From assembly GCA_038222655.1 (NCBI GenBank), contig JBBRHM010000001.1:3350-67349 (forward strand): a stretch of 64,000 bases of DNA, written 5' to 3'. This stretch comes from Chitinophagales bacterium (GTDB lineage: Bacteria > Bacteroidota > Bacteroidia > Chitinophagales > Chitinophagaceae). The notes under the pieces are model-generated. The model saw only the letters and a list, made by a program, of their open reading frames with translations, searched no databases and had not been told where the DNA came from. Within the stretch, counting starts at the first letter, position 1. The number at the start of each line of letters is the position of its first letter. The translations under genes were made by a program, and so were the position numbers. This document shows, in pieces, positions 46,843 to 63,838 of this stretch.

Positions 46843-47005
46843 GACGTCGGTTTAAATAATGGCAGGCTTACTTCTTTACTTATTGAAAGTAAGATAAATA
46901 AAGCCAGAAAGAAGATTTTGTGCATTGCCCAATGCAAAAATAGAAAATCATACGACAACCTGCAACAGCTCTATAAACTGAACGTTGTTATTGTATCTTT
47001 AACCC

Positions 47006-47566
47006 ATGCAGTTGTATATAAAAAATATGGTTTGCCCCAGATGTATTGCTTCAGTAAAACACATACTGAAGGAGTCAGGCGTTACCTATTCATCTGTTCA
47101 TTTGGGAGAGGTAAAAACGGAAACTGACCCAACAGAAAAGCAGTTAGGATTATTACAAACAAAATTATTAGCTGCAGGGTTTGAATTACTGGATGATACA
47201 AGGAAGCGACTCATCGAAAAAATAAAAACCATCATAATTGAACAGGTACATTATGATGCAGATACTAAAAAGCAAAAACTATCAGAGGTACTTTCATCGA
47301 GTCTCCGCAAAGATTATTCTTTTCTAAGTAACCTTTTTTCGGATGTGGAAGGCATTACTATTGAAAAGTATCTTATTCAACAGAAAATAGAAAGGGCCAA
47401 AGAATTAATAGTCTACAATGAACTCACTGTAAGCGAAATTGCCTTTCAACTGGGCTATACAAGCGTTTCGCATCTTTCTGCACAGTTTAAATCGGTAACC
47501 GGTCTTACGCCCACCCATTTTAAGAAGGTTGGTAATGCACATCGTAAAACACTCGATAGCATCTGA
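47006..47566 (+). CDS. AraC-family regulator with N-terminal HMA-like CxxC domain
   Basis: KNMVCPRC; C-terminal IERAKELI...SEIAFQLGYTSVSHLSAQFKSVTGLTP. Confidence 0.9.
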   Translation: MQLYIKNMVCPRCIASVKHILKESGVTYSSVHLGEVKTETDPTEKQLGLLQTKLLAAGFELLDDTRKRLIEKIKTIIIEQVHYDADTKKQKLSEVLSSSLRKDYSFLSNLFSDVEGITIEKYLIQQKIERAKELIVYNELTVSEIAFQLGYTSVSHLSAQFKSVTGLTPTHFKKVGNAHRKTLDSI

Positions 47567-47569
47567 ACC

Positions 47570-47631
47570 ATAATTCTATAACAGGTTTCCACAATTGTAT
47601 AACAGCCCCCAAAGCTGGACAGGTACCTTTG
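47570..47631 (+). promoter_or_regulatory. Tandem 21-bp-spaced direct repeat plus -7 box TACCTTTG (candidate AraC site)
   Basis: ATAATTCTATAACAG at 47570 and ACAATTGTATAACAG at 47591; TACCTTTG at 47624-47631. Confidence 0.7.
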
Positions 47632-47647
47632 TAAAATAAAAAATAGT

Positions 47648-48382
47648 ATGACACATACCTATACAGTAACCGGCATGACCTGCACAGGGTGCCAGGCAAA
47701 AGTGCAACAACTGCTATCACAAATACCCGGCATTCAACAAGTAGCTATTGATTTGGCTAAGGCTGAAGCCACCTTATCCATGGAAACGCATGTGCCTACA
47801 GAACAATTGCAGGCAGCGCTAAAAGACTATCCCAAATATCAACTCAGTGATCAAAAAGCGCCAATACCGGCACGGCTGGAATTATCGGAAGAAAAAAAAT
47901 CATGGCTAACCACTTATAAACCTATTCTTCTGATTGGTGCATACATTACAGGTATTTCATTAATAATGGAACTCGTAAATAATACCTTTCAATGGCAGTC
48001 ATGGATGGAACATTTTATGGCGGGATTCTTCCTTACTTTCTCATTCTTTAAATTATTAAATATTGAAGGGTTTGCCGATAGTTATGCCATGTATGATGTA
48101 ATTGCAAAAAAAATACGCGTATGGGGTTATATCTATCCATTTGTTGAATTAATGCTGGGTATTGCTTACCTGACATCCTTTAGTCCTGTATATACCAATA
48201 TGGTCACTTTCCTTATCATGTCGATCAGTATGATAGGTGTATTACAAAGCGTTCTTGCTAAAAGAAAAATAAAATGTGCCTGTCTGGGTGCCGTGTTTGA
48301 TTTGCCCATGAGTACTATAACCATTATTGAAGATCTTGCCATGATTGCCATGAGTGGTGCTATGCTATTAGTAATGTTATAA
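47648..48382 (+). CDS. HMA-domain plus MauE/DoxX-like membrane protein
   Basis: GMTCTGC, then TM helices and a CACLG motif. Confidence 0.85.
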   Translation: MTHTYTVTGMTCTGCQAKVQQLLSQIPGIQQVAIDLAKAEATLSMETHVPTEQLQAALKDYPKYQLSDQKAPIPARLELSEEKKSWLTTYKPILLIGAYITGISLIMELVNNTFQWQSWMEHFMAGFFLTFSFFKLLNIEGFADSYAMYDVIAKKIRVWGYIYPFVELMLGIAYLTSFSPVYTNMVTFLIMSISMIGVLQSVLAKRKIKCACLGAVFDLPMSTITIIEDLAMIAMSGAMLLVML

Positions 48383-48467
48383 TGACCTGAAAACCAACCT
48401 ATTTAAAATAATTAACAACTCCTGTATTCCGTCAGTAGAAAATAATGATACCTTTACCTTGTTAAAA

Positions 48468-48854
48468 ATGAAAAAGTTTCTTGTAACCATATTGGCTTTA
48501 GTATATCTCTCCGTTTCGAGTGGGGCCACTATCAGTATGCATTACTGCATGGGAAAGCTAATGGCCTGGGAGTTGCAAGAAACAAGGAATACTGCTTGCG
48601 GCACTTGTGGCATGGAAAAATCAAGTCACAAAGGATGTTGCAAAGACGAACAAAAAAAATTACAGATTGATAAAGACCAGAAAATTTCTGAATCTTCTTT
48701 TCATTTTCTAAAGATTACGCCGGAGGCAATGAATTTTCATTCCCGGTCCTTCTTTTATTCATCGCTTTTTTCAATTAATTATCCCCTTGCGCATGGACCT
48801 CCTGCATTAACGACCGTGCCGATTTTTATTCGTAATTGCAACTTCCGCATTTAA
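48468..48854 (+). CDS. Cys/His-rich small exported protein (HYC..CC..PP type)
   Basis: Hydrophobic N-terminus, MHYCMG, CGTCG, GCCKD, AHGPP near the C-terminus; start ATG 48468. Confidence 0.75.
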   Translation: MKKFLVTILALVYLSVSSGATISMHYCMGKLMAWELQETRNTACGTCGMEKSSHKGCCKDEQKKLQIDKDQKISESSFHFLKITPEAMNFHSRSFFYSSLFSINYPLAHGPPALTTVPIFIRNCNFRI

Positions 48855-49002
48855 TAGTTTTCTCCTTGTAACATACTCGGCTTTCTGCCGTAATGGGCCA
48901 TGCAATATCAGTTGCCCAGTCTTAGTCTTACTATTATCATCAAAATAGGTTTCAGCATTAGCGTATACTAGTGTTGCTGCCTATACCACTAAAAAAAATA
49001 CA

Positions 49003-49461
49003 ATGAAAACTTTCAAAATAATATTTGCCATACTGTTTGCATTTTCAATAAGCCAATCAGTTCATGCTCAAAGTAATAAATCAGATCGTATAAAAGACGA
49101 TAAAAAATCTGTTACCCTGGTAGAATATACATGTCCTATGCATCCGGATGTAACGAGTGATAAACCCGGCAAATGTTCTAAATGCGGAATGTATCTTAAC
49201 CGTTCAAAAAAAGAACAGCTGAAACAGGATGCAGTAAACTATACCTGTTCCATGCACCCCGACGTAGTGAGTGATAAGCCCGGCCAATGTGCTAAATGTG
49301 GCATGAATTTACATCTTTCCAAAAAGGAAGAAATGAAATCAGCTGTGATAAATGGGTATACCTGCCCTATGGATACGGATGTAAAGAGTGATAAACCCGG
49401 CAAATGTCCCAAATGCGGTATGACAATGGCTGCCGCAAAAACAAAAGTTAAGAAAGCATAA
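49003..49461 (+). CDS. Exported protein with three heavy-metal-binding (HMBD) repeats
   Basis: Signal peptide; YTCPMHP..PGKCSKCGM, YTCSMHP..PGQCAKCGM, YTCPMDT..PGKCPKCGM. Confidence 0.85.
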   Translation: MKTFKIIFAILFAFSISQSVHAQSNKSDRIKDDKKSVTLVEYTCPMHPDVTSDKPGKCSKCGMYLNRSKKEQLKQDAVNYTCSMHPDVVSDKPGQCAKCGMNLHLSKKEEMKSAVINGYTCPMDTDVKSDKPGKCPKCGMTMAAAKTKVKKA

Positions 49462-49499
49462 ACCTTATTTATTTACATTGATCATTTAAAATTAGTATC

Positions 49500-49988
49500 A
49501 TGAAAACATTTATTTTTTTAATAGCAGGTCTTATTTGTATGTCAGCATCTGCACAGGTATCTAAGGTTACCATACAGGCTAGTGGGCTAACCTGCAGTAT
49601 GTGTAGTAATTCTATCAACAAATCTTTGAAGACGATTGATTTTGTTCAGAATGTAAATCCAAATATTCAGAATTCTTCTTTTGAAATAACTTTTAAAACA
49701 GGATCTGCAGTTGATTTTGACAAGCTGAAAAAAAAGGTAGAAGATGCGGGATTTACGGTTGCCAGCTTTACAGCCCTCGTTAACTTCAATAATGTACAGG
49801 TTAAAGCTAACCAGCCGATCAAGGTTGGTGACAAAACACTATATATTCTCAATGCAAAAGATCTGTCGTTGAATGGGGCAAAGCAGATAAGAGTACTTGA
49901 TAAAGGCTTTGTATCAGGCAAAGAATTTAAAAAGAATGTATTAGCTACTGCCGGTGGCGGCAACGGTACCTATAATGTAACTATTTAA
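49500..49988 (+). CDS. Exported HMA-domain metal chaperone
   Basis: Signal peptide, GLTCSMC, V.DAGF. Confidence 0.8.
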   Translation: MKTFIFLIAGLICMSASAQVSKVTIQASGLTCSMCSNSINKSLKTIDFVQNVNPNIQNSSFEITFKTGSAVDFDKLKKKVEDAGFTVASFTALVNFNNVQVKANQPIKVGDKTLYILNAKDLSLNGAKQIRVLDKGFVSGKEFKKNVLATAGGGNGTYNVTI

Positions 49989-49994
49989 GTATAC

Positions 49995-50025
49995 AGGTGG
50001 TTTTACCTCCTAGGTAAAACCACCT
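49995..50025. other. Perfect intergenic hairpin
   Basis: AGGTGGTTTTACCT-cct-AGGTAAAACCACCT, 14-bp stem, no T-tract. Confidence 0.7.
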
Positions 50026-50038
50026 TAAATCTTACCAG

Positions 50039-50848
50039 ATGAAAACCAAACTACTCATAGCCATGTTGCTTGTTTCCTTAACGGGCATGGCACAGGAGCT
50101 TTTTGTATTTACAGAACCGGCCAGTAATATGGCAGCAAAAAGTATAGGGTTACGGTTGAATAATTTTATCATGCCGGAAACCTATACAAACAAAACCAAC
50201 TACAACCTTGTTCCTGAGATAATGTTAGGTGTTTCCAAAAAACTGATGGTACATGGCGATCTTTTTTTTAGTAACCGCAACAAACCATTCTCTGCGGAAG
50301 GTGCGAGCGTGTATGCTAAGTATCGTTTTATAAGTAATGATGAGGTTCAAAGACATTTCCGCATGGCCGCCTATGGCAGGTATAGTTTTAACAACGGCAC
50401 TATTGACCAGGAAGAGATTAATTTATATGGGCGTAATACGGGTTATGAAGCTGGTATTATTGCCACGCAACTACTGCATAAAGTGGCCCTTTCTTCCGGC
50501 TTATCATTTACAAAAGCTATGGACAATGGAGGTAATCATACATTCATATATGGGAAGCCCGACAGTAAAGCCATCAATTATACCTTATCAATTGGAAAAT
50601 TAATGTTGCCAAAAGAATATACCGATTATAAACAAACCAATGTTAACCTGATGGTAGAGTTCCTTAACCAATTGAACCTGGGGTCAGGCAAATATTATAT
50701 GGATGTTGCGCCATCCGTGCAGTTTATATTTAACAGCGTTGCCCGGGTTGATATCAGTTACCGGAAAGAGTTAACCAGTACTTTATTCAGGACGGCCGCA
50801 GATGGATTTTTTGTGCGTCTGGAATACAATTTGTTTAATGCGTTTTAA
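50039..50848 (+). CDS. Uncharacterised outer-membrane beta-barrel-like protein
   Basis: Signal peptide, alternating aromatic/hydrophobic strands, C-terminal Phe. Confidence 0.6.
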   Translation: MKTKLLIAMLLVSLTGMAQELFVFTEPASNMAAKSIGLRLNNFIMPETYTNKTNYNLVPEIMLGVSKKLMVHGDLFFSNRNKPFSAEGASVYAKYRFISNDEVQRHFRMAAYGRYSFNNGTIDQEEINLYGRNTGYEAGIIATQLLHKVALSSGLSFTKAMDNGGNHTFIYGKPDSKAINYTLSIGKLMLPKEYTDYKQTNVNLMVEFLNQLNLGSGKYYMDVAPSVQFIFNSVARVDISYRKELTSTLFRTAADGFFVRLEYNLFNAF

Positions 50849-50875
50849 GGGTGAGAATCAAGCTACTGAAAGTGG

Positions 50876-50936
50876 CAATCATGTAAGTTTTTAGGGCAAT
50901 TGTATAACTTTAAGAAGGCGTCAACTATTAATTTTG
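50876..50936 (+). promoter_or_regulatory. Second copy of the tandem repeat plus -7 box TAATTTTG
   Basis: CAATCATGTAAG (50876) and CAATTGTATAAC (50897), 21 bp apart; -7 box starts 32 nt after the second repeat, as at 47592/47624. Confidence 0.6.
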
Positions 50937-50945
50937 TAGTACTCC

Positions 50946-51398
50946 ATGATAACAAACAGATCAATACAGTTCAAAGCGGCTTTCCTGCTTGTTGTATTCG
51001 CATTGAATACAGTAGTAGGCTTTGCCTGTTCTGTGGGTGTGGATATGGGATTTAATACTTCACACCATGGGCCTGAATTAAAAGGCACAGTGCATATTCA
51101 TAAAGATGGAAAAAAGCATTTGCACAAATCAGGTAACGATAAACACCATCATGCTAACAAACAGGCGGCTTCAAAGAAAGATGATTGCTGCAAGGATAAG
51201 GTAATCAAATTACAAACCTCTGATAAAAGCTCTCAATACGCACAAACAGTAATTAAAGCCCCTGAATTTAACGTAAACTCCATTTTTCAAACACCGGTTT
51301 TTAATACAGTAAAGGGTGTAAGACAAAAAGAGATAGATTACTATTTTCATCCGCCGCCCCGTAATATCTACTTACACATCCAGCATTTGCTGATATGA
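50946..51398 (+). CDS. His/Cys-rich small protein with C-terminal polyproline
   Basis: Hydrophobic N-terminus, FAC, HHG..HIH..KHLH..KHHH, DDCCKD, FHPPPR. Confidence 0.7.
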   Translation: MITNRSIQFKAAFLLVVFALNTVVGFACSVGVDMGFNTSHHGPELKGTVHIHKDGKKHLHKSGNDKHHHANKQAASKKDDCCKDKVIKLQTSDKSSQYAQTVIKAPEFNVNSIFQTPVFNTVKGVRQKEIDYYFHPPPRNIYLHIQHLLI

Positions 51399-51474
51399 TT
51401 TGATGTAAATTTTACTACTTCATGGCTATGCCATGTCTGTAATCCATTCTTTACTACTATTAAATCATACAAAA

Positions 51475-52056
51475 ATGAAAAATATAATTATAGGGATTGC
51501 CCTTACTTCTATCGCAATTACAGCTTGTAATACCAGCCCTGACAAAAATAAAGATGCAATACTAGTTAACAGTGCTGACGTAAAAGAGGTTACTGAATCA
51601 CCAAAAAAAGATCCTAATGTGGATGGGGCGATGCGTGAAATGATCAGTCAGTATTTACAAATAAAGAACGCCTTAGCGAATGATAATGGTAAGGATGCTG
51701 CCAATGCAGGCAATGCTTTTGTAGAATCTATGGGCAAAATGGAAAAAAATTCATTATCGCCGGAGAAAAAGAAAGTATGGGATGATCTTTCTGATGACGC
51801 CAAGGAAATGGCTGAACACATAGGCAAGAATGGAGATAAGCTCGCGCACCAACGGGAGCATTTTGACATGCTTAGCAAAGACATGTATGATATGGTGAAA
51901 ACATTTGGAGCAAGCCAGCCACTATATAATGATTATTGCCCCATGTATAATAATAACAAAGGCGCAACCTGGTTAAGTGAAACCAAAGAAATAAAAAATC
52001 CATACCTCGGTAAAAAAATGCCCACTTGCGGTTCAGTTAAAGAAGAGATGAAATAA
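51475..52056 (+). CDS. DUF3347-like metal-binding lipoprotein
   Basis: Lipobox ITAC (start ATG 51475), YLQIKNALAND, QREHF, YCPM, WLS...IKNPYLG..MPTCG. Confidence 0.8.
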   Translation: MKNIIIGIALTSIAITACNTSPDKNKDAILVNSADVKEVTESPKKDPNVDGAMREMISQYLQIKNALANDNGKDAANAGNAFVESMGKMEKNSLSPEKKKVWDDLSDDAKEMAEHIGKNGDKLAHQREHFDMLSKDMYDMVKTFGASQPLYNDYCPMYNNNKGATWLSETKEIKNPYLGKKMPTCGSVKEEMK

Positions 52057-52062
52057 TTAAAG

Positions 52063-52536
52063 ATGAACTGGAAAAAGAAAATATTGCTTTCAGTCATAGC
52101 CGTATTTATCATTATACAATTTATACAACCTGTCCACAACACAAGCGGGCAGGTATTACCGGCAGATATCACCCAAACATTGAGTGTTCCGGATAATGTG
52201 AGAGAGATTTTTACAAAGGCCTGTAATGATTGTCATAGTAACCATACCCGGTACCCATGGTATGTATATATACAACCCATAGGATGGATGATGGAAAACC
52301 ATATTAAGAAAGGAAAAGAAAATCTGAATTTTAGTGAGTTTGGAAATTACTCAAAAAGAAAACAAGCTAATAAGCTTAGATCAATTGGAATAAGCCTTGA
52401 AGATGGGTCAATGCCGCTCTACGGATATACTATACTGCACCAAGCGGCGAGACTGAGTACAGAAGAGAAAAAAATGATTATTGCCTGGGTATCCAATACA
52501 AAAGACAGTCTTTCAAAAAACCAGTATGGAAAATGA
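52063..52536 (+). CDS. Haem-binding-domain (c-type) protein
   Basis: ACNDCHS (CxxCH), YPWY, LNFSE, MPL..Y...H. Confidence 0.82.
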   Translation: MNWKKKILLSVIAVFIIIQFIQPVHNTSGQVLPADITQTLSVPDNVREIFTKACNDCHSNHTRYPWYVYIQPIGWMMENHIKKGKENLNFSEFGNYSKRKQANKLRSIGISLEDGSMPLYGYTILHQAARLSTEEKKMIIAWVSNTKDSLSKNQYGK

Positions 52537-52607
52537 AAAAATTAAAAATAATCTTCATCAAAATTTTTAAAGCAATTTTTATCAGGAAAAAAGATTGCTG
52601 TAAATAA
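52533..52607 (+). CDS. Putative 24-aa peptide MKKLKIIFIKIFKAIFIRKKDCCK (not in track)
   Basis: ATG overlaps the upstream stop (ATGA); stop TAA 52605-52607 is 8 nt before the next ATG. Confidence 0.55.
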   Translation: MKKLKIIFIKIFKAIFIRKKDCCK

Positions 52608-52615
52608 CAGAATAT

Positions 52616-53182
52616 ATGGGAGACATACAAGCTATAATATTTGTAGTACCGGTCATTGCATTGATACTGACAAGTATATTGTATCTCTATTGTCTACATA
52701 CAGTTACCGATAAGAAAGGTTTTACTACATTCGTTTTTATAGCAGCTGCTTTAGCTTTTCTGTTAAACTTTACATGGGAAGTAATTCAAATACCGCTATA
52801 TAAAGGTTCGTCTTTTACGGCAAATCATATTGCATTTTGTGCACTGGGGTCACTCGCAGATGTGATAATGGTTTTACTTCTCTACCTGGGGTTTGCATTT
52901 ATATTTAGAAAACCATTTTGGATACAGGATGCAAGATGGCAAAAAGTAATCATACTGATTTTGATAGGTGCAATAGGGGCCATTTTATCTGAGATGCGAC
53001 ATTTATCATTAGGAAGTTGGTCCTATGATGATTCGATGCCTATCATTCCGGTTGTGAAAGTGGGTATATCACCCGTATTGCAATTTATGATTCTGCCGCT
53101 GATAATTTATCGGATAAGCTTTAACTACTCATTACTAATGAAACGAAGAAAAGAAAAGAAATTTTACTCACACCAATTATAA
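52616..53182 (+). CDS. Hypothetical multi-pass membrane protein
   Basis: About 5 TM helices, NFTWEVIQ.PLY, HIAFC, G.SP..Q. Confidence 0.65.
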   Translation: MGDIQAIIFVVPVIALILTSILYLYCLHTVTDKKGFTTFVFIAAALAFLLNFTWEVIQIPLYKGSSFTANHIAFCALGSLADVIMVLLLYLGFAFIFRKPFWIQDARWQKVIILILIGAIGAILSEMRHLSLGSWSYDDSMPIIPVVKVGISPVLQFMILPLIIYRISFNYSLLMKRRKEKKFYSHQL

Positions 53183-53184
53183 AA

Positions 53185-55251
53185 ATGGAACACAATCATC
53201 ATAAGGAAGCACCTGCCAAAACTCCCACTATGGATCATTCCGGTATGCACCATGATGCCATGCAACATAGTACCGGGCCAGGCATGGGAATGGAAGGCCA
53301 TAACCATCATGCCATGATGATTGCTGATTTTAAAAAGCGGTTTTATGTGGTGCTGATACTGACTATTCCTATCATGCTGCTATCGGCAATGATACAGCAA
53401 TTTATGGGCGTAAACTGGCAGTTTAAAGGCTCTTCCTATATACTATTCGCACTATCATCCATAGTATTCGTTTATGGCGGATGGCCTTTTTTAAAGGGGT
53501 TAGTTGATGAAGTGAAAACAAAGAATCCCGGTATGATGTTTTTAATTGGCTTTGCTATATCCGTAGCTTACATCTACAGTGTAGCTATTGTATTTGGCCT
53601 ACAGGGTATGGATTTCTTTTGGGAACTGGCCACCTTAATACTCATTATGCTTTTAGGTCACTGGATAGAAATGAAATCTGTAGCCGGAGCCTCAAAAGAA
53701 TTGGAGTTGTTAGTACAATTGATGCCGTCAGATGCGCATATGGTTATGCCTGATATGGTACATGATGTACAGACAGCTAGCCTAAAAGAAAAGGATATTA
53801 TCCTCGTAAAGCCTGGCGAAAAAGTGGCCGCGGATGGCATCATCCTTGAAGGTGAGAGTTATCTAAATGAATCTATGCTTACCGGCGAATCAAAACCGGT
53901 ACAAAAAATTAAAGGAGATAAAGTAATTGCCGGGTCAATTAATGGCAATGGTTCCATAAAAGTTACCATCTCTCATGCTGCAAAAGATTCCTATCTCTCA
54001 CAGGTAATCAAATTAGTGGAAGATGCACAAAAATCAAAATCAAAAACCCAGCTACTGGCAGATACCGCTGCAAAATGGTTAACGGTTATTGCTATTATTT
54101 CAGGCATCGCTACTTTTTTGTATTGGTTTTTAACAGGCCAGTCTCTAGCATTTTCGATGGAACGAATGGTTACGGTAATTGTAATTTGTTGCCCCCATGC
54201 TTTAGGACTCGCAGTGCCTTTAGTGGTTGCCAAATCAACCGCCCTATCTGCTAAAAACGGTTTACTCATTAAAAACCGGACAGCTTTTGAAAACGCAAGA
54301 AAAATCACCACTATCGTATTTGACAAAACGGGCACTTTAACGGTTGGGAAATTTGAAGTATCCAAAATTATTTCCCTTCAAAGCGGTGTTACAGAAAATG
54401 AAATTATACGCCTGGCTTCCGCGTTAGAGCAAAAATCGGAACATCCTATTGCTACGGGCATCCTGCAAAAAGGGAAAGATTTATCCATCGCTGTTCCTGC
54501 CACTGAAAATTTTAATGCTATTACTGGTAAAGGTGTAGAAGCTACGGTAGACGGCAAAAAGATAAGGGTAGTAAGTCCCGGCTATTTAAAAGAAAACAAT
54601 ATTTCTATCCCCGCAGAATTCACGGCCAATGATACGGAAACAGTTGTGTTTGTATTAATCAATGATGGGATGGCAGGATACATCGCCTTATCAGATCAGA
54701 TACGACCTGAATCAGCAGAAGCGATCAGTACCTTACAGAAAAATCACATCAAATCAATTTTACTAACCGGCGATAACCGCAACGTAGCAAAAACAGTGAG
54801 TGAAACATTAGGGATGGATAGCTTTATTGCCGAAGTATTGCCGCACCAGAAATTAGAAAAGATAAAAGAGCTGCAAGGAAAAGGAGAATTTGTAGCAATG
54901 ACGGGTGACGGCGTAAATGATGCACCGGCCCTTGCGCAAGCAGATGTAGGCATTGCCGTAGGCAGTGGCAGTGATATAGCTGCAGAAACAGCAGGTATTG
55001 TTTTAGTGAACAGTAATCCTAAAGATATTGTGAGTTTACTCTTATTTGGCAAAGCCACTTATAGAAAGATGATTCAAAATTTAATTTGGGCAACCGGCTA
55101 CAATATAATTGCGCTGCCATTGGCAGCCGGTGTTTTATATAAGCAGGGCATATTATTAAGTCCCGCGGCCGGTGCGGTTTTGATGACAGTAAGTACCGTA
55201 GTGGTTGCCATTAATGCAAGTATGTTAAGCGTACAAAAAAGTAAACTTTAA
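53185..55251 (+). CDS. copB: Copper-translocating P1B-3-type ATPase with His/Met-rich N-terminus
   Basis: TGES, CPH (ICCPHALGLA), DKTGT, SEHP, GDGVNDAPAL, YN and MxxST TM motifs. Confidence 0.93.
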   Translation: MEHNHHKEAPAKTPTMDHSGMHHDAMQHSTGPGMGMEGHNHHAMMIADFKKRFYVVLILTIPIMLLSAMIQQFMGVNWQFKGSSYILFALSSIVFVYGGWPFLKGLVDEVKTKNPGMMFLIGFAISVAYIYSVAIVFGLQGMDFFWELATLILIMLLGHWIEMKSVAGASKELELLVQLMPSDAHMVMPDMVHDVQTASLKEKDIILVKPGEKVAADGIILEGESYLNESMLTGESKPVQKIKGDKVIAGSINGNGSIKVTISHAAKDSYLSQVIKLVEDAQKSKSKTQLLADTAAKWLTVIAIISGIATFLYWFLTGQSLAFSMERMVTVIVICCPHALGLAVPLVVAKSTALSAKNGLLIKNRTAFENARKITTIVFDKTGTLTVGKFEVSKIISLQSGVTENEIIRLASALEQKSEHPIATGILQKGKDLSIAVPATENFNAITGKGVEATVDGKKIRVVSPGYLKENNISIPAEFTANDTETVVFVLINDGMAGYIALSDQIRPESAEAISTLQKNHIKSILLTGDNRNVAKTVSETLGMDSFIAEVLPHQKLEKIKELQGKGEFVAMTGDGVNDAPALAQADVGIAVGSGSDIAAETAGIVLVNSNPKDIVSLLLFGKATYRKMIQNLIWATGYNIIALPLAAGVLYKQGILLSPAAGAVLMTVSTVVVAINASMLSVQKSKL

Positions 55252-55318
55252 AAAAAGGTGTTAGATAACAACAATTGATTATCTAACTTTTAAAAAAAGA
55301 TTCATAAAATTCTAATAA

Positions 55319-58300
55319 GTGAAAACAGAAAGCAACATAAAAAAAATAATTATATCGATACTATTTTTTGGGGCATGTTCTTTTGTATCTGCACAGGATA
55401 TGAAAAGAATGGATATGTCTAAAATGGAAACTACAAAAAAGGTACAGCCAACAACCTATACCTGTGTCATGCATCCGGAAATCCATGCAACCAAGCCAGG
55501 TAATTGTCCAAAATGCGGGATGAAACTGATAAAAGAAAAACCAAAAGTCGCCTCCAGGCCAGAAGCTAAAAAAATGGACGGAATGCAAATGCCGAAAGAT
55601 CCCGTTAAGGTAAAAAAGATGGATAATATGGATGGGGTGAAAATGGATGATATGCAAATTTCTTCCACTAATAATCAATCTCAGCCGGTAACGTATACAT
55701 GTCCCATGCACCCGGAGATTCATGCCAGCAAACCGGGTAATTGTCCAAAATGCGGAATGAAACTAGTTAAAGAAAAACCCAAGGCTGCCGCTCCAGAATC
55801 AAAAATGCAACAGCAGGATGGCATGCAAATGCCCATAAAAAACGATTCAAAAAAGATGGATAATATGGAAGGGATGAAGATGGACAATATGCAAGTGCCT
55901 TCCACCAATAACCCATCTCAGCCGGTAACGTATACCTGCCCCATGCACCCGGAGATTCACGCCGGTAAACCCGGCAATTGTCCAAAATGCGGAATGAAAC
56001 TGGTTAAAGAAAAACCGAAGGCTACCCCTACCGAATCAAAAATGCAACAGCATGATGGCATGCAAATGACCATGAAAAACGATTCAAAAAAGATGGATCA
56101 TATGGAAGGAATGAAACTGGATGATATGGGCCATATGGAAATGTCAAAAGCATTACTTGGACCCATAAAAACAATTTTCAACCCTACCCCTCCTCATACG
56201 GTGCGTTACGATTTATATATACGGGACACAACCGTAGTTTTTGGAAAAAAACAAAAACGGGCCATTGCCGTAAATGGAAGTATACCTATGCCCACGCTTA
56301 CTTTTACCGAAGGCGATACTGCTGAGATTTATGTACACAATGAACTGAATGAGGAAACATCCCTGCACTGGCATGGTCTTTTTCTTCCTAATAGATACGA
56401 TGGCGTACCCAATCTCACCCAAATGCCTATTAAACCTCATACAACACATCTCTATACATTCCCAATCATTCAGCACGGAACGCATTGGTACCATAGTCAT
56501 ACCGGATTACAGGAACAGATTGGCATGTATGGCGCTTTTATCATGAATAAAAGAAAGGAATGGGATATTCCCACCATCCCATTAGTAATTAGTGAATGGG
56601 CAGATATGAAGCCAGAAGAAATTCATAGAAGTCTTCATAATGCCACCGATTGGTTTGCTATACAAAAAGGAACTACCCAAAGTTATACAGAAGCTATACA
56701 AAAGGGCCAATTAAAAACCAAGCTTACCAATGAATGGAAACGGATGAATGCAATGGATGTAAGTGATGTGTTTTATGATGCATTTCTGATAAATGGCAAA
56801 AATCAAAATGAACAGCCGCAATTTAAGGCAGGCGATAAAGTAAGATTACGGATAGCAAACGGTGGAGCATCAGATTATTTCTGGTTAACCTATGCGGGTG
56901 GTAAAATAACGGTTGTAGCCAATGATGGTAATGATGTAGAACCAGTTGATGTAGACAGGCTGATTATAGCCGTATCCGAAACATATGATGTAGTGGTAAC
57001 CATTCCGGAGAACAAGCGCTATGAATTTTTGGTAACACCCGAGGACCGCACAAAATCAGCATCGCTATGGTTAGGCAGCGGGGAAAAAGTACCTGCTATA
57101 AAGTTGCCAAAACTTAAATATTTCGCCGGCATGAAGATGATGAATGAAATGATGGATATGAAAGGCAACATGATACAAATGGAAGGTATGCAAATGAGCA
57201 ACCAGGTAATGGATATGAATACGGTTATGTACCCTGAAATAACAGGACCTGAAAATGCAAAAGATATCATGAAATCAGAGCAGATGCAGGGAATGAAAAT
57301 GGCTACTCCTTCTTCAAGTAGCACCAATACAATGAAAATGGAGACTGGTAAACAGATGCAGATGAATAATGGCAGCCACAGTATGGCTGGGATGGATATG
57401 AGTGCTGATATTGCTGATATAGTAACGCTTAATTATGGGATGCTTCGTGCCCCTGACAAAACAACGCTGCCTTCCGGTCCGTTAAAAGAATTAAAATTTG
57501 ATTTAACCGGAAATATGAACCGCTACGTGTGGACATTAGATAATAAAACAGTGTCAGAGTCGGATAAGATTTTAATTAAAAAAGGTGAAAATGTAAGAAT
57601 GATCATTTTCAACAATAGTATGATGCGGCATCCTATGCACCTTCATGGCCATGACTTCAGGGTATTAAACGGACAGGGCGAAAATGCGCCGATGAAAAAT
57701 GTGATAGACATAATGCCCATGGAAAGAGATACCCTTGAATTTGCTGCTACCGAAAGTGGTGATTGGTTTTTTCACTGCCATATTTTATACCATATGATGA
57801 GTGGCATGGGCAGGATATTCAGTTATGAAAATTCGCCCCCTAACCCGGAAATACCTGACCCCAAATATGCCACGCGTATGCTCTTCAAAGATGACCGAGA
57901 AGCACACTTCATGGTAAAAGCAGGTATAGAAAGCAATGGCTTCGATGGTGAAGCCATGCTCGCAAATACACGCTGGAAATTAAGTACCATGTGGCACCTG
58001 GGGCATCAGGACATGCATGGCTATGAAAGTGAAACCATGATTGGCCGTTACCTGGGTCGTATGCAATGGTGGTTTCCCTATATAGGTTTTGATTACCATT
58101 ATAAAGTGGAAGGCGGCCCCAAAAATATATTTGGTAATGAAGAAAAAAATTGGTTAGGCCAAATGAGTAATAAAAATAATCGCAAAACACTTGTAGCCGG
58201 TGTAGCCTATACCTTACCGATGCTGATTATTGCAGATGGTCGCATAGATGGTGATGGCAAGTTCCGATTTCAGGTAAGCAGAGAAGGTATTACCCTTACC

Positions 58301-58444
58301 CCCAGAATACGTTTCAACTGGATGCTGAATACTGACAAGGAATATGCTGCGGGCTTACGGTATACGGTTACCAAATACTTTTCTCTTTCAACCCACTATG
58401 ACAGTGATATGGGACTGGGAGCCGGCATTACTATAACTTATTAA
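55319..58444 (+). CDS. Multicopper oxidase with three N-terminal HMBD/Met-rich repeats and a C-terminal barrel-like domain
   Basis: HWHG, WYHSH, HPMHLHGH, HCHILYHM copper motifs; signal peptide; amphipathic-strand tail ending in Tyr. Confidence 0.9.
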   Translation: MKTESNIKKIIISILFFGACSFVSAQDMKRMDMSKMETTKKVQPTTYTCVMHPEIHATKPGNCPKCGMKLIKEKPKVASRPEAKKMDGMQMPKDPVKVKKMDNMDGVKMDDMQISSTNNQSQPVTYTCPMHPEIHASKPGNCPKCGMKLVKEKPKAAAPESKMQQQDGMQMPIKNDSKKMDNMEGMKMDNMQVPSTNNPSQPVTYTCPMHPEIHAGKPGNCPKCGMKLVKEKPKATPTESKMQQHDGMQMTMKNDSKKMDHMEGMKLDDMGHMEMSKALLGPIKTIFNPTPPHTVRYDLYIRDTTVVFGKKQKRAIAVNGSIPMPTLTFTEGDTAEIYVHNELNEETSLHWHGLFLPNRYDGVPNLTQMPIKPHTTHLYTFPIIQHGTHWYHSHTGLQEQIGMYGAFIMNKRKEWDIPTIPLVISEWADMKPEEIHRSLHNATDWFAIQKGTTQSYTEAIQKGQLKTKLTNEWKRMNAMDVSDVFYDAFLINGKNQNEQPQFKAGDKVRLRIANGGASDYFWLTYAGGKITVVANDGNDVEPVDVDRLIIAVSETYDVVVTIPENKRYEFLVTPEDRTKSASLWLGSGEKVPAIKLPKLKYFAGMKMMNEMMDMKGNMIQMEGMQMSNQVMDMNTVMYPEITGPENAKDIMKSEQMQGMKMATPSSSSTNTMKMETGKQMQMNNGSHSMAGMDMSADIADIVTLNYGMLRAPDKTTLPSGPLKELKFDLTGNMNRYVWTLDNKTVSESDKILIKKGENVRMIIFNNSMMRHPMHLHGHDFRVLNGQGENAPMKNVIDIMPMERDTLEFAATESGDWFFHCHILYHMMSGMGRIFSYENSPPNPEIPDPKYATRMLFKDDREAHFMVKAGIESNGFDGEAMLANTRWKLSTMWHLGHQDMHGYESETMIGRYLGRMQWWFPYIGFDYHYKVEGGPKNIFGNEEKNWLGQMSNKNNRKTLVAGVAYTLPMLIIADGRIDGDGKFRFQVSREGITLTPRIRFNWMLNTDKEYAAGLRYTVTKYFSLSTHYDSDMGLGAGITITY
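55445..56129 (+). repeat. Three intragenic tandem repeats, 237-bp (79-aa) period
   Basis: CAGCC anchors at 55445, 55682, 55919; each unit is YTC.MHPEIHA.KPGNCPKCGMKL plus a Met-rich linker; third unit truncated. Confidence 0.9.
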
Positions 58445-58522
58445 AATATATTTCCCTTTACAGGAAGACCATGAAAATAAAAATCGTTAACCCCTATTTC
58501 TTAATTATTAAAATCAAAAATT

Positions 58523-58855
58523 ATGAGCCATGTGAAAAATCAGGCATTGCTTACTGCCTTACATAATTGCCAATCAGAGTGCAACCATTGTATAACAGCC
58601 TGCCTGGATGAAGCAGACATAAAAATGCTGGCAAAATGTATTAAGCTGGATATTGATTGCGCGGAAATTTGTACGCTTACTGCTGCATTAATTGCACGCG
58701 GTTCTGAACACGGCAAACATATGCTGAAAGAATGCGCCGAAGTGTGCAATGCCTGCGCAGAAGAATGCGAAAAACATGCAAAGATGGGAATGGAGCATTG
58801 CAAAGCCTGTGCAGAAGCCTGCAGGACCTGTGCCCAGTTATGCAGTGCAGCTTAA
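58523..58855 (+). CDS. Four-helix-bundle copper storage protein (Csp3/DUF326-like, cytosolic)
   Basis: Repeated CxxxC/CxxC Cys spacing, DCAEIC, no export signal. Confidence 0.85.
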   Translation: MSHVKNQALLTALHNCQSECNHCITACLDEADIKMLAKCIKLDIDCAEICTLTAALIARGSEHGKHMLKECAEVCNACAEECEKHAKMGMEHCKACAEACRTCAQLCSAA

Positions 58856-58866
58856 GCATTATTGAA

Positions 58867-58899
58867 GAAGGCAGGTAGATTACCTGTCTTCCTTTTTTT
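58867..58899 (+). terminator. Intrinsic terminator after csp
   Basis: GAAGGCAGGTA-gat-TACCTGTCTTC followed by a T run. Confidence 0.7.
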
Positions 58900-58939
58900 A
58901 GTAACCTCAACAACATTATTTACGATAAAATCAACAATT

Positions 58940-59617
58940 ATGAAAACGAACAGAATTTTTCTTCCCTTGTTTGCAGTCACAATGGTGGCTACCAGTTGCC
59001 ATAGCGACAAAACAACCATTGATATGGCAAATACCGATTCAGCAAAAATGAGAAGTATGGGAAAAGATGCGGCAGATAAAAAGATGGGAATGGATGACAT
59101 GAAAAACAATGTATCTATGGTTAGTATGTCGGCCATGATGGAGAAAATGAATGGAATGAAAATGACCGGGGATTTTGATATAGATTTCGCAGCTATGATG
59201 ATAGAACATCACCAGGGAGCCATTGATATGAGTGAAGCTGAAAGCAAGTCAGGTTCAGATGCACAAATGAAAGCCATGGCAGAGATGATGATTAGGATTC
59301 AAAAAGAAGAGCAAAATACATTAAGAGACATGATAAAAAATAACAAGCCCGTGAAAATGAATATGGGGCAGGGCGATGCATTAAGCAAAGCAATGGAGGA
59401 AATGAAAACGAAGATAGGTGCAATGCAAATGACAGGAAATACAGATAAGGATTTTGCCGTGATGATGATTCCTCACCATGAGAGTGCAGTAAGAATGGCA
59501 AAAAATGAATTGTCTTATGGCATGAAAACAGGCCTAAAACAAATGGCAAAAAAAATGATTACTGACCAAACCAAAGAAATTAATGAATTCAAAAAATGGT
59601 TGTCGGCACAGAAATAA
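58940..59617 (+). CDS. DUF305/CopM-like Met-rich lipoprotein
   Basis: Lipobox ATSC (start ATG 58940); two D.DFA.MMI.HH..A..M repeats; Q..EI. Confidence 0.85.
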   Translation: MKTNRIFLPLFAVTMVATSCHSDKTTIDMANTDSAKMRSMGKDAADKKMGMDDMKNNVSMVSMSAMMEKMNGMKMTGDFDIDFAAMMIEHHQGAIDMSEAESKSGSDAQMKAMAEMMIRIQKEEQNTLRDMIKNNKPVKMNMGQGDALSKAMEEMKTKIGAMQMTGNTDKDFAVMMIPHHESAVRMAKNELSYGMKTGLKQMAKKMITDQTKEINEFKKWLSAQK

Positions 59618-59782
59618 GCGCTTACATAAGATGATAGATTAGGTTTCCCGGTGGGAGCAAAGACGGTAAAGCCATCCAAAGCCCTTGCCTCCTTTCTTTT
59701 CTTTGCATTAAATTATTTAAACAAACGAGACACATCTAAAGCGCTCGTGTCTAAAATAATATTGACGTCAATGTTATGTAAA

Positions 59783-60826
59783 CTATAATGCAATCAGGCG
59801 CAGCTGAATATTAACAGGTGTTTGCCACACGCAAAGCACATTTTTATCATCCACTGCTTTCAATAAAGGCAGACTTCCTTTTCCGATATTACTGGCGATA
59901 CCGCTATTTTTCTTTACCATAATATTACCTTTCTCACCCCATGCATACACAGTGTTAGTCTGAATAGTTTCAATAGACCCATTACGACCTTCCCCAATTT
60001 GTGTTTCATTCATACCTGGTGAAGCCGTGTAGATTTTGCCTTCCCGCTGCCATATTGTTTCGGGAGTGCCCGCCTGATTGATTACGATACCACCACCATC
60101 CATAGGGCATCCGTTTAATTTCCAGTTGCCGTTTCCTAATTTTTCTGCCGCGCCAAATGTCTGGCCCCTATCTGATGAATGAACGAGATACATATCACGA
60201 TTTCCATTTAACCAGTTCCGAAACATCACATATACCTGGTTACCTTTCATCACCACCGATGGCTTGCAGCATTCACAAATAGTATTATCGGGAGATTCAT
60301 ACACAACCCCATTTTTACTCCAGCTTTTTCCACCATTTACTGATTTTACACCATAGAGATTTTGCCCTTTCGAATTTTTTACGCTTAGCCATATGGCATA
60401 GACATTTAATCCATCTGCACTCAGTGCCATCAAAGCTTCTTTGGCTGTCTCTGGTCTTTCATTAAGCCTCACTGGTTTGGTCCAGATTGCGCCTGATTTT
60501 TTAAAAGAGAAAATGTCACCCTTTTTTGTACAAGCCGTTACCACCAAGCCATCAGTGGTAGCCGCTATTTGCGGGCCCCGCATAGCTGTAGTGAACACGT
60601 TGGGTACAACAGCAATTAAAAGAGGCTTGGAAAATACTTTTCCGTCTTTAGAAGAAATATACATTAGGCTATCGCCCATACCATACGTAATATGGAGCAC
60701 CCCTTTACTGTCTTTTGCTATATTGGGCATCTGGCCCTTTATCATTACCGTACCATTTTCTGCAGACTGTGTATTACCGGAAAGTGTCGCCAAAATAGCG
60801 ATTATAAAAAAATGGATGAATTTCAT
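59783..60826 (-). CDS. Exported BNR/Asp-box beta-propeller-like protein
   Basis: The translation reads on the minus strand (track strand is wrong); S.NGGKSW and SSDRGQTF Asp-boxes, CECCKP, GCPMDGG; start ATG 60826. Confidence 0.75.
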   Translation of the reverse strand: MKFIHFFIIAILATLSGNTQSAENGTVMIKGQMPNIAKDSKGVLHITYGMGDSLMYISSKDGKVFSKPLLIAVVPNVFTTAMRGPQIAATTDGLVVTACTKKGDIFSFKKSGAIWTKPVRLNERPETAKEALMALSADGLNVYAIWLSVKNSKGQNLYGVKSVNGGKSWSKNGVVYESPDNTICECCKPSVVMKGNQVYVMFRNWLNGNRDMYLVHSSDRGQTFGAAEKLGNGNWKLNGCPMDGGGIVINQAGTPETIWQREGKIYTASPGMNETQIGEGRNGSIETIQTNTVYAWGEKGNIMVKKNSGIASNIGKGSLPLLKAVDDKNVLCVWQTPVNIQLRLIAL

Positions 60827-60856
60827 GATAATTTTATTTAAATGAGTGCCTGATGT

Positions 60857-60889
60857 GTTATACAATACTACACCTAACTTACATATATC
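60857..60889 (-). promoter_or_regulatory. Third copy of the tandem repeat motif
   Basis: Minus strand GATATATGTAAG-N9-GTATTGTATAAC; no correctly spaced -7 box. Confidence 0.4.
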
Positions 60890-63382: not shown

Positions 63383-63391
63383 GAAAATTAT

Positions 63392-63838
63392 TTACGGTTG
63401 TATTACAAATGAATCCTTACCGGGTTTCGAAATATTTTTTTGAATGATCAGGGTCAAAACTTCGTGAATAGTTTTTTTGAGTTGCGAAAACTCCGCTGGT
63501 TTCCTGATGTAATAGTTTGCCCCGTTTGCATAAAGCAGGTTTACTGTATCACTATGGCAGGAAGTAGAGAAAATTACAATCGGAAGGTCTTTTAGTTTAT
63601 TATTATTTTTTATTTCAGACAAACATTCCATACCTGTTTTACGGGGCATGTTCAGGTCAAGAAAAAGAATATCGGGAAGTGTGGTTTCTTCTGTGGTAAG
63701 CAATTGCATAAGTTCTACTCCGTCATGCACAGTAAGCAGGTTAACTATAAGTGGCAATTCGTGCAAGGCTTCTGTAAAAAAAATACAATCATCCGTATCA
63801 TCATCGGCAAGTAACAGATTGTATTTTTTTATTGTCAT
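63392..63838 (-). CDS. Single-domain response regulator (CheY/Rcp1-like)
   Basis: LLADDD, PDILFLDLNMP, FSTS, GANYYIRKP. Confidence 0.92.
   Translation of the reverse strand: MTIKKYNLLLADDDTDDCIFFTEALHELPLIVNLLTVHDGVELMQLLTTEETTLPDILFLDLNMPRKTGMECLSEIKNNNKLKDLPIVIFSTSCHSDTVNLLYANGANYYIRKPAEFSQLKKTIHEVLTLIIQKNISKPGKDSFVIQP

Follow-up and report, generated by a model that had tools for sequence, protein, structure and literature searches.

The stretch analysed here, called the window throughout, comprises 64 kb of a contig from a Chitinophagales bacterium and contains a gene cluster, between 45.8 and 63.8 kb, with a gene for an AraC-type transcriptional regulator. Directly behind this gene lies a direct-repeat element, which recurs in front of a second predicted operon of the same cluster; the genes behind the two sites encode, among others, HMA (heavy-metal-associated) proteins, a P-type ATPase and a multicopper oxidase. 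A preliminary description of this DNA had proposed that the regulator is a copper-sensing activator and that the element, reported at three places, is its operator. According to the analysis presented below, it is probable that the regulator is a one-component metal sensor belonging to a large family of the Bacteroidota, and that it serves as a copper-responsive switch at this element. What the sequences directly establish is that the element is conserved and of fixed geometry, that it is linked to the regulator gene as well as to export genes of the Cu(I) type, and that the regulator has HMA homology.

The regulator consists of an HMA-like domain (residues 1-62), a linker helix (64-82) and an AraC-type domain with two helix-turn-helix (HTH) motifs (approximately 90-177). 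It belongs to the AraC/XylS family, with Pfam scores of 61.6 bits for HTH_18 (cut-off 33.6) and 36.8 bits for HTH_AraC (cut-off 26.6, residues 107-174). An AlphaFold2 (AF2) model calculated with 59 homologues gave a predicted local distance difference test (pLDDT) value of 85, rising to about 90 in the DNA-binding helices at 92-177. In this model the N-terminal domain shows a beta-alpha-beta-beta-alpha-beta order (strands at 2-6, 28-32, 35-38 and 60-62, helices at 11-23 and 44-56), the CxxC motif at 10-13 opens the first helix, and the long linker helix is followed by the seven helices of the AraC domain. Structure searches with Foldseek matched the DNA-binding domain to 3lsg, 3mkl (GadX), 3w6v (AdpA), 2k9s (AraC), 7w5w (SoxS) and 1bl0 (MarA), with target-normalised TM scores of 0.7-0.86, and the N-terminal domain to CopZ (2qif), HMA7 (3dxs) and TTHA1718 (2roe), with probabilities of 0.96-0.99; among these structure matches, no solved chain combined an HMA with an AraC domain.

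The preliminary description had singled out the N-terminal MxCxxC domain, and its kinship with HMA domains is supported by the predicted fold as well as by profile comparisons. HMA is the top Pfam match of the isolated domain, over the full length of the profile, with 17.8 bits and an E-value of 0.0045 (13-23 bits in three homologues), and an hhalign comparison of 39 N-terminal domains with a CopA/CopZ HMA profile from the same genomes returned a probability of 94.6% and an E-value of 6.5e-8, with CxxC aligned on CxxC. The domain is, as judged from these comparisons, a divergent HMA homologue. In its motif M8-V9-C10-P-R12-C13, the residues V9, C10, R12 and C13 are invariant among the 59 homologues and M8 is at least 90% conserved, and the most conserved part of the whole protein in this alignment is the DNA-binding domain. 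Clustered at 90% identity, the family counts more than 7,000 groups, each bearing only the name "AraC family"; the closest genome-encoded members, from a Bacteroidota metagenome-assembled genome, Ferruginibacter and Segetibacter, are 57-62% identical to the window protein. No NCBIfam model is specific to the regulator, which gave only generic AraC-domain matches far under their cut-offs, and no paralogue was found in the window. As the preliminary description had noted, this is the sole regulator of the cluster: among the genes at 45.8-63.8 kb there is no other DNA-binding regulator, and no match to MerR, CsoR (PF02583) or CopY/BlaI (PF03965) that would indicate a CueR, CsoR or CopY protein.

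For comparison, 160 loci from other Bacteroidota were collected in two sets. Set 1 (L001-L080) comprises 80 loci on contigs from one genome per species, fetched with the regulator, whose regulators are 49-62% identical to that of the window; Chitinophagales, Sphingobacteriales, Cytophagales, Flavobacteriales and Bacteroidales are represented, together with one Balneolales. Set 2 (L081-L160) comprises 80 metagenomic loci that were fetched with a secreted BNR-type protein encoded in the window, independently of regulator and motif, to test the third of the reported sites. Cultured species that carry such a locus include Tenacibaculum discolor DSM 18842, Empedobacter brevis, Zunongwangia pacifica, Myroides sp. 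WP-1 and Sediminibacterium magnilacihabitans. DNA nearly identical to window positions 46900-52000 was encountered only in metagenomes (sediment, aquatic, glacier and soil), sharing at most 75% of the sampled words; together with the distance of the closest genome-encoded regulators, this points to an uncultured organism, probably of the Chitinophagales.

Across these loci, the element consists of two direct copies of the half-site AAT-N2-TRYAA(C/A) at a spacing of exactly 21 bp, with a Bacteroidota -7 box, TAnnTTTG, downstream; its consensus reads tAAATcTTAyAAAtc......A.AATt.yRTAAC then ...AacTTTG. A Gibbs sampler run without a prior pattern on the 110 nt past each regulator stop codon recovered it in about 56 of the 80 set 1 loci. 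It begins at or just past the stop codon in roughly 54-58 of these 80 genomes, the stop codon TAA often supplying its first three bases. At a threshold of 13 bits or more, 138 matches were counted in the 1.47 Mb of set 1, against about 5 expected from the shuffle rate, 58 of them beside the regulator stop and another 80 at other places of these loci, nearly all followed by a -7 box in register; the matrix having been trained on L001-L080, these set 1 statistics are partly circular, and the independent tests are the window and L081-L160. In set 2, matches of at least 12 bits numbered 41 in 0.4 Mb, against about 1 expected, and nearly all of them lie just past a pair of regulator and BNR genes, in front of genes for CopA, CopZ-like, HMA-MauE or HYC proteins. 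Because set 2 was chosen without reference to regulator or motif, it provides independent confirmation.

The geometry of the element is strict. Of 145 half-site pairs obtained by locating sites through the proximal half alone and then placing the best distal half, 128 are spaced by exactly 21 bp. Between the proximal AAT and the TTTG of the -7 box, 74 foreign sites have 36 nt and 13 have 35 nt, the latter value being that of the window sites. Within the box, A occurs at column 56 in 87% of the sites and TTT at columns 59-61 in 75-94%. Columns 34-53, between the proximal half and the -7 box, hold no information, and there is no conserved TTTG at -33, a place that the proximal half fills; this agrees with the statement in the preliminary description that the second repeat overlaps the -33 region. 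Autoregulation is not the rule, since only 6 of 106 family members have an upstream site, and these are mostly paralogues; regulators of the copper type are therefore usually not autoregulated through this motif, so far as their upstream regions suggest.

The genes that follow the element are largely of one kind. The first gene behind the regulator-adjacent sites of set 1 encodes an HMA domain in 47 of 52 cases, being an HMA P-type (P1B) ATPase in 39 and an HMA-MauE fusion in 7, and other set 1 sites precede small CopZ-like HMA proteins (13), further ATPases, HYC_CC_PP and DUF3347 proteins and five regulator genes. The combination of CPC, NX6YNX4P and MxxSS is the Cu(I)/Ag(I) signature of the P1B-1 ATPases (CopA). 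Among the ATPases preceded by a site in the 160 loci, 44 of 49 carry CPC in transmembrane segment 6 (TM6), NX6YNX4P in TM7 and MxxSS in TM8. The tandem motif with 21-bp spacing proposed in the preliminary description thus proves to be a phylum-wide element tied to the regulator, at a fixed distance from a -7 box and in front of genes for Cu(I) ATPases, CopZ-like, HMA-MauE and HYC_CC_PP proteins.

In the window, the quoted strings of all three reported sites are present where they had been placed. Site 1 starts 6 nt past the regulator stop codon and consists of a distal half AATTCTATAAC (47572-47582) and a proximal half AATTGTATAAC (47593-47603); site 2 consists of a distal half AATCATGTAAG (50877-50887) and again AATTGTATAAC (50898-50908), the halves being 21 bp apart in both. 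The window was scored on both strands with a weight matrix built from 96 foreign sites, to which it contributed none. Site 1 ranked first among all window positions, with 18.3 bits (0.03 such matches expected per window), and site 2 ranked second, with 14.6 bits (0.13 expected). The orthologues of the genes behind them agree: of 10 loci with an orthologue of the HMA-MauE gene (site 1), 8 have a site immediately in front of it, as do L002 (22.6 bits), L125 (23.5 bits) and L144 (33.3 bits) for the gene behind site 2. In view of the foreign-matrix ranks and the orthologue sites, it is therefore well supported, as a reading of the sequence, that sites 1 and 2 are genuine copies of the conserved motif.

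Both sites are geometrically identical, with a -7 box that begins 31 nt after the proximal AAT (47593 and 50898). The distance of exactly 32 nt after the second repeat given in the preliminary description holds for site 2 only, which had been quoted with a leading C (CAATCATGTAAG at 50876 and CAATTGTATAAC at 50897), and is 31 nt for site 1. The start codon of the second operon lies 9 nt past its -7 box, which leaves a very short leader. The string ATTGTATAAC has four exact copies in the window, against 0.33 expected, three of them intergenic within the cluster. The fourth (58587-58596, plus strand) was rejected as a site: it falls within the coding sequence of the DUF326 protein, spelling N-H-C-I-T in a CxxxC repeat, lacks a distal half and was taken as a coding coincidence. 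A weak match of 6.9 bits upstream of the regulator (46944-46979, plus strand) was likewise rejected as an autoregulatory site. Its box, TAtcTTTA, is 5 nt out of register, and it is taken as probably due to chance because so few family members have a site of their own upstream. A scan for sigma-70 promoters returned 55 matches against 52 expected, the sigma-70 model being uninformative for this phylum.

Table 1. Features of the copper-related cluster, in window coordinates.
Feature	Position	Strand	Basis or remark
Regulator gene, 186 aa	47006..47566	+	HTH_18 and HMA-like N-terminus
Site 1, predicted operator	47572..47603	+	Best foreign-matrix score in window; starts 6 nt past regulator stop codon
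-7 box TAccTTTG, operon A	47624..47631	+	Read from sequence; TTTG 35 nt past proximal AAT
HMA-MauE membrane protein	47648-48382	+	Pfam/NCBIfam; operon A
HYC_CC_PP protein	48459-48854	+	Pfam/NCBIfam; operon A
Protein with three HMBD repeats	49003-49461	+	Pfam/NCBIfam; operon A
Secreted HMA protein	49500-49988	+	Pfam/NCBIfam; operon A
269-aa protein without assigned function	50039-50848	+	Operon A
Site 2, predicted operator	50877..50908	+	Second-best foreign-matrix score in window
-7 box TAatTTTG, operon B	50929..50936	+	Read from sequence; TTTG 35 nt past proximal AAT
HYC_CC_PP/CopL-like protein	50946-51398	+	Pfam; operon B
DUF3347 protein	51433-52056	+	Pfam; operon B
Haem_bd protein	52063-52536	+	Pfam; operon B
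188-aa protein without assigned function	52616-53182	+	Operon B
CPH-type P1B ATPase, His-rich N-terminus	53185-55251	+	Motifs CPH, NX6YNX4P; operon B
Multicopper oxidase with HMBD repeats	55319/55400-58444	+	Pfam; operon B
DUF326 Cys-rich four-helix protein	58523-58855	+	Pfam; operon B
Intrinsic terminator-like hairpin	58867..58891	+	11 pairs and T run; top terminator match of the region
Secreted BNR-type beta-propeller, 347 aa	59783..60826	-	Pfam BNR_2
Site 3, doubtful non-canonical copy	60857..60888	-	4.1 bits; reads ATATATGTAAG-N10-TATTGTATAAC

The genes behind sites 1 and 2 are listed in Table 1. Operon A (47648..50848, plus strand) is the predicted target of site 1, its unity being judged only from a shared strand and short gaps, and operon B (50946..58855, plus strand) is the predicted target of site 2, for which a terminator can be added to the same two arguments. 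The ATPase of operon B differs from the CopA type found behind most sites elsewhere: a CPH motif in TM6, an N-terminus rich in His and Met and the absence of an HMA domain make it CopB-like (P1B-3). The multicopper oxidase has three N-terminal HMBD repeats and an ambiguous start, GTG at 55319 or ATG at 55400. The hairpin at 58867..58891 probably ends operon B; it overlaps the TTG start of the longest DUF305 reading frame (58862-59617), and the DUF305 gene probably starts at ATG 58940 with its own promoter, outside the predicted regulon. In the rest of the window, positions 1-42000 hold a long minus-strand polysaccharide biosynthesis cluster (epimerases/dehydratases, methyltransferases, NeuB and a CMP-sugar transferase) and also, in keeping with a Bacteroidota origin, the genes PorU (Peptidase_C25) and PorV for type IX secretion, and the copper cluster is flanked by genes for a 1104-aa outer-membrane barrel protein and a VIT1 iron transporter.

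The regulon of three sites put forward in the preliminary description is supported for sites 1 and 2, which take the top two matrix scores, and not for site 3. This site had been quoted as ATGTAAG-N9-GTATTGTATAAC on the minus strand, a string that occupies 60884..60857, the end point 60889 given there including five flanking bases. Its score of 4.1 bits, with 4.3 such matches expected per shuffled window, is indistinguishable from chance. It retains both TRYAA cores at 21 bp and agrees with 14 of the 17 high-information columns; both AAT boxes, which are 90-99% conserved in the family, are lost, and TAAAATTA stands where the -7 box belongs, with no TTTG at the expected place. With site 2 it has the exact blocks ATGTAAGTT (9 nt) and ATTGTATAAC (10 nt) in common; nothing else in the resemblance is notable, since shuffled sequences also reach the overall identity of 21/36. 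The BNR gene has its ATG 30 nt past the site, at column 64, and because it sits 2 nt past the position of the -7 box, the canonical activation geometry is impossible. Site 3 was consequently rejected as a canonical site for its score, the missing AAT boxes and TTTG, and the ATG at column 64, and would be, at best, a doubtful, atypical or decayed copy.

The gene behind site 3 encodes the secreted BNR-type propeller, and the loci of set 2 bear on its relation to the regulator. A regulator orthologue stands immediately beside the BNR gene in about 28 of the 80 set 2 loci and in L003 (7893-8942); the regulator is mostly directly upstream of the BNR gene, with gaps down to 8 nt, and downstream in a few cases. 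In set 2, a strong site of 25-38 bits occurs about 10 nt past the BNR stop codon, in front of CopA, CopZ-like, HMA-MauE or HYC genes. The BNR protein is thus a conserved genomic partner of the regulator. Elsewhere, no BNR orthologue was found with a site ahead of it; where the gene stands behind the regulator it has none of its own, and the site is located beyond it. That the BNR gene of the window is a regulon member is possible on this evidence. Its orthologues have a conserved signal peptide and the invariant residues C184-x-C186-C187, C240-P-M242 and C332, a set of cysteines and a methionine that would suit a periplasmic metal or redox site; a copper or redox function in the periplasm is possible. 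Immediately upstream of site 3, the minus strand also carries (60926-63838) genes for an 818-aa histidine kinase of the PAS/PAS type and for a 148-aa response regulator that has a receiver domain only, with no output domain.

The family to which the regulator belongs appears from its gene neighbourhoods to be broader than copper, and the window protein is placed by them in the copper-linked majority. A homologue of a copper gene was found within 4 kb of 79 out of 100 regulators with CxxC, against 0-1 out of 8 for paralogues with SxxC; the sole SxxC paralogue near a copper gene (among seven or eight) has a CxxC copy at its locus. As a family divider, the residue that follows the second cysteine was tried and rejected, as it fails to separate copper-linked from other members, and only CxxC versus SxxC does so. 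One CxxC sub-branch, with the N-terminus MVCIRCKMVVK..., comes from loci where numerous sites precede small genes of the stress type and copper genes are missing from the vicinity. These loci (L039, L052, L062, L073, L074, L077, L078, L020 and L045) carry two to three regulator copies each, and in them SxxC N-termini of the forms MVSxRCK and NMESERC, with one cysteine lost, are also present. Up to a dozen near-identical sites of the form TGAATnATGTAAC-N10-AATTGTATAAC precede genes for CsbD-like, cupin, DJ-1-like and small membrane proteins and for sensor-less histidine kinases, an arrangement that looks like a separate stress regulon on the same DNA motif.

From these observations we infer that the regulator binds the element, that copper is the signal and that the outcome is activation, and a mechanism can be proposed, including the way in which copper would act. 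Two copies of the regulator would bind in tandem on the 21-bp direct repeat, which corresponds to two helix turns, with the proximal half at the -33 position, 35-36 nt upstream of the TTTG of the -7 box. Once the CxxC motif has taken up Cu(I), and probably also Ag(I), the protein would recruit or stabilise RNA polymerase at promoters that have no -33 element, and in the window the operons at 47648-50848 and 50946-58855 would be switched on. The choice of Cu(I), and probably Ag(I), as the signal follows from the target genes, while activation by contact with the polymerase is proposed because of the strict -7 phasing, the missing -33 element and the general behaviour of the AraC family. In CopZ and Atx1 dimers, two HMA domains are bridged by Cu(I). 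The preferred guess for the action of copper is similar: Cu(I) would bridge two HMA domains into a dimer and so favour cooperative filling of both half-sites; alternatively, a change could be transmitted via the linker helix.

The rival explanation that survives best, although it is judged unlikely, accepts protein and operator and disputes the signal, which would not be specific to copper and could be Ag, Hg, Cd, Zn, or thiol-oxidising or electrophilic stress sensed through a disulfide; copper genes would then form just one group of targets. HMA domains bind several soft metals, CxxC relatives would control small stress-type genes in the absence of copper genes nearby, and sites also precede a cation-diffusion-facilitator (CDF) transporter and two ATPases lacking the Cu(I) signature, all of which would suit a broader signal. 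Set against this, the full Cu(I)/Ag(I) signature is present in 44 of the 49 site-preceded ATPases, the window cluster encodes a DUF326 protein and a multicopper oxidase next to an ATPase of the CPH type, MxCxxC with its conserved Met is the form of Cu(I) chaperones, and the loci with stress genes constitute a separate sub-branch of the family.

Repression, with the regulator occluding the promoter until copper releases it in the manner of CopY or CsoR, is given a somewhat lower chance still. The proximal half over the -33 region could indeed block RNA polymerase, and a few AraC-family proteins repress; a good -7 box without a conserved -33 element is, however, typical of activator-dependent promoters, of the 91 sites that have a TTTG in range, 87 keep their distance to the -7 box to within 1 nt, as expected of contact with the polymerase and not of occlusion, and a tandem 21-bp repeat whose proximal half lies at -35 is the classical activation layout of AraC, RhaS and MelR. 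Finally, it is very improbable that another factor recognises the element, or that it is a matter of promoter architecture with the AraC gene adjacent by conserved gene order only, for although the pairing of element and regulator is deduced from sequence and the frequent overlap with the regulator stop codon makes part of the conservation a possible gene-end constraint, the element recurs at second and third promoters kilobases away from the regulator (80 further matches of at least 13 bits), sits after the BNR gene in place of the regulator, has a 21-bp direct repeat that suits two tandem AraC-type domains, and is as constant across orders as the DNA-binding domain, the most conserved part of the regulator, would lead one to expect.

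The preferred reading, a copper-responsive activator acting at the element, also has to be held against several observations that weigh against it. The N-terminal domain scores below the gathering threshold of the Pfam HMA model PF00403 (17.8 against 24.8 bits). Sites precede, as mentioned, one CDF gene and two ATPases that lack the Cu(I) signature, and because a CxxC sub-branch occurs in loci devoid of copper genes, CxxC alone is no proof of copper sensing. To these may be added the chance-level score and the unusable geometry of site 3 and the partial circularity of the set 1 statistics. None of the RNA runs searched for the window contains its DNA. A wider claim can be formulated, namely that the HMA-AraC family is the principal copper sensor of all Bacteroidota in place of CueR, CsoR and CopY, working in a way so far not seen in a transcription factor, with Cu(I) bridging the HMA domains of two monomers into a tandem dimer that would occupy both half-sites and touch RNA polymerase, and that its SxxC paralogues have been reused for a regulon of small stress proteins on nearly the same motif; this is regarded as a tentative and on balance doubtful extension.

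The control of copper genes has been described in the Proteobacteria (CueR, CusRS), the Firmicutes (CopY, CsoR) and the Actinobacteria (CsoR, RicR). We know of no description of copper control of transcription in the Bacteroidota, a gap that matters given the prominence of this phylum in gut, soil and marine habitats. A search of the literature on copper, AraC and HMA regulators in Bacteroidota found no description of the regulator, most subscription journals lying outside the search, so that an earlier report is possible. The combination of known domains and a known activation layout in a metal-sensor family is apparently undescribed, and its predicted operator is now defined across the phylum. 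With a candidate sensor and an operator of such strict geometry, the regulon becomes predictable from the motif in any Bacteroidota genome, and a copper-handling context is given to the HYC_CC_PP, DUF3347 and Haem_bd proteins, the 269-aa protein and the Cys-rich BNR propeller. If the proposal is true, the joining of a metal-chaperone domain to an AraC domain represents an additional kind of metal sensor, with a possible use as a compact, copper-inducible pair of promoter and regulator for Bacteroidota genetics.

Among known systems, the closest in DNA-binding layout are AraC itself (at araBAD I1/I2 of E. coli), RhaS, RhaR, MelR and XylS. AraC, RhaS and MelR activate from tandem 21-bp half-sites, the proximal one lying over -35. 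The regulator shares with this group the C-terminal domain with two HTH motifs, the N-terminal sensor joined to it by a linker, the 21-bp direct repeat and the proximal half over -35/-33, a class II activator layout that is here predicted. It differs in its sensor, which in the AraC group is a cupin domain for sugar binding and dimerisation and here is a metal domain of 62 residues and HMA-like fold; the half-sites are unrelated in sequence, the promoter belongs to the -7/-33 type of the Bacteroidota, and there is no sign of the distant looping site known from AraC. A cysteine-dependent switch coupled to an AraC-type domain is also found in Ada, with its N-terminal Zn-Cys4 centre, and in RclR, with redox-active cysteines, and the N-terminal complex of Ada (1u8b) is among the Foldseek matches of the regulator. 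However, these proteins respond to methylation damage and reactive chlorine rather than to a metal, and their sensor folds differ from that of the regulator.

In its predicted role, the regulator resembles CueR, the MerR-family protein that acts on copA and cueO in Proteobacteria, where Cys-based sensing of Cu(I) likewise activates genes for a Cu(I) ATPase and a multicopper oxidase. The two proteins are unrelated in fold and mechanism: CueR remodels the DNA at an inverted repeat in an over-long spacer (19-20 bp) between -35 and -10, whereas neither the window regulator nor the genes of its cluster have a MerR domain, and the operator is a direct repeat upstream of a -7 box. CopY/CopZ of Enterococcus hirae and CsoR also place cop operons under copper-dependent control, but CopY and CsoR are repressors of other folds, and neither occurs in the cluster at 45.8-63.8 kb. 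CopY receives its Cu(I) from an HMA chaperone of the CopZ type, whereas in the window protein a chaperone-like domain forms part of the regulator. The archaeal regulators of the CopR/CopT type, in which an HTH domain is fused to a metal-binding TRASH domain and which are encoded beside copA, follow the same design principle as that proposed for the window regulator, with both domains and the lineage being different.

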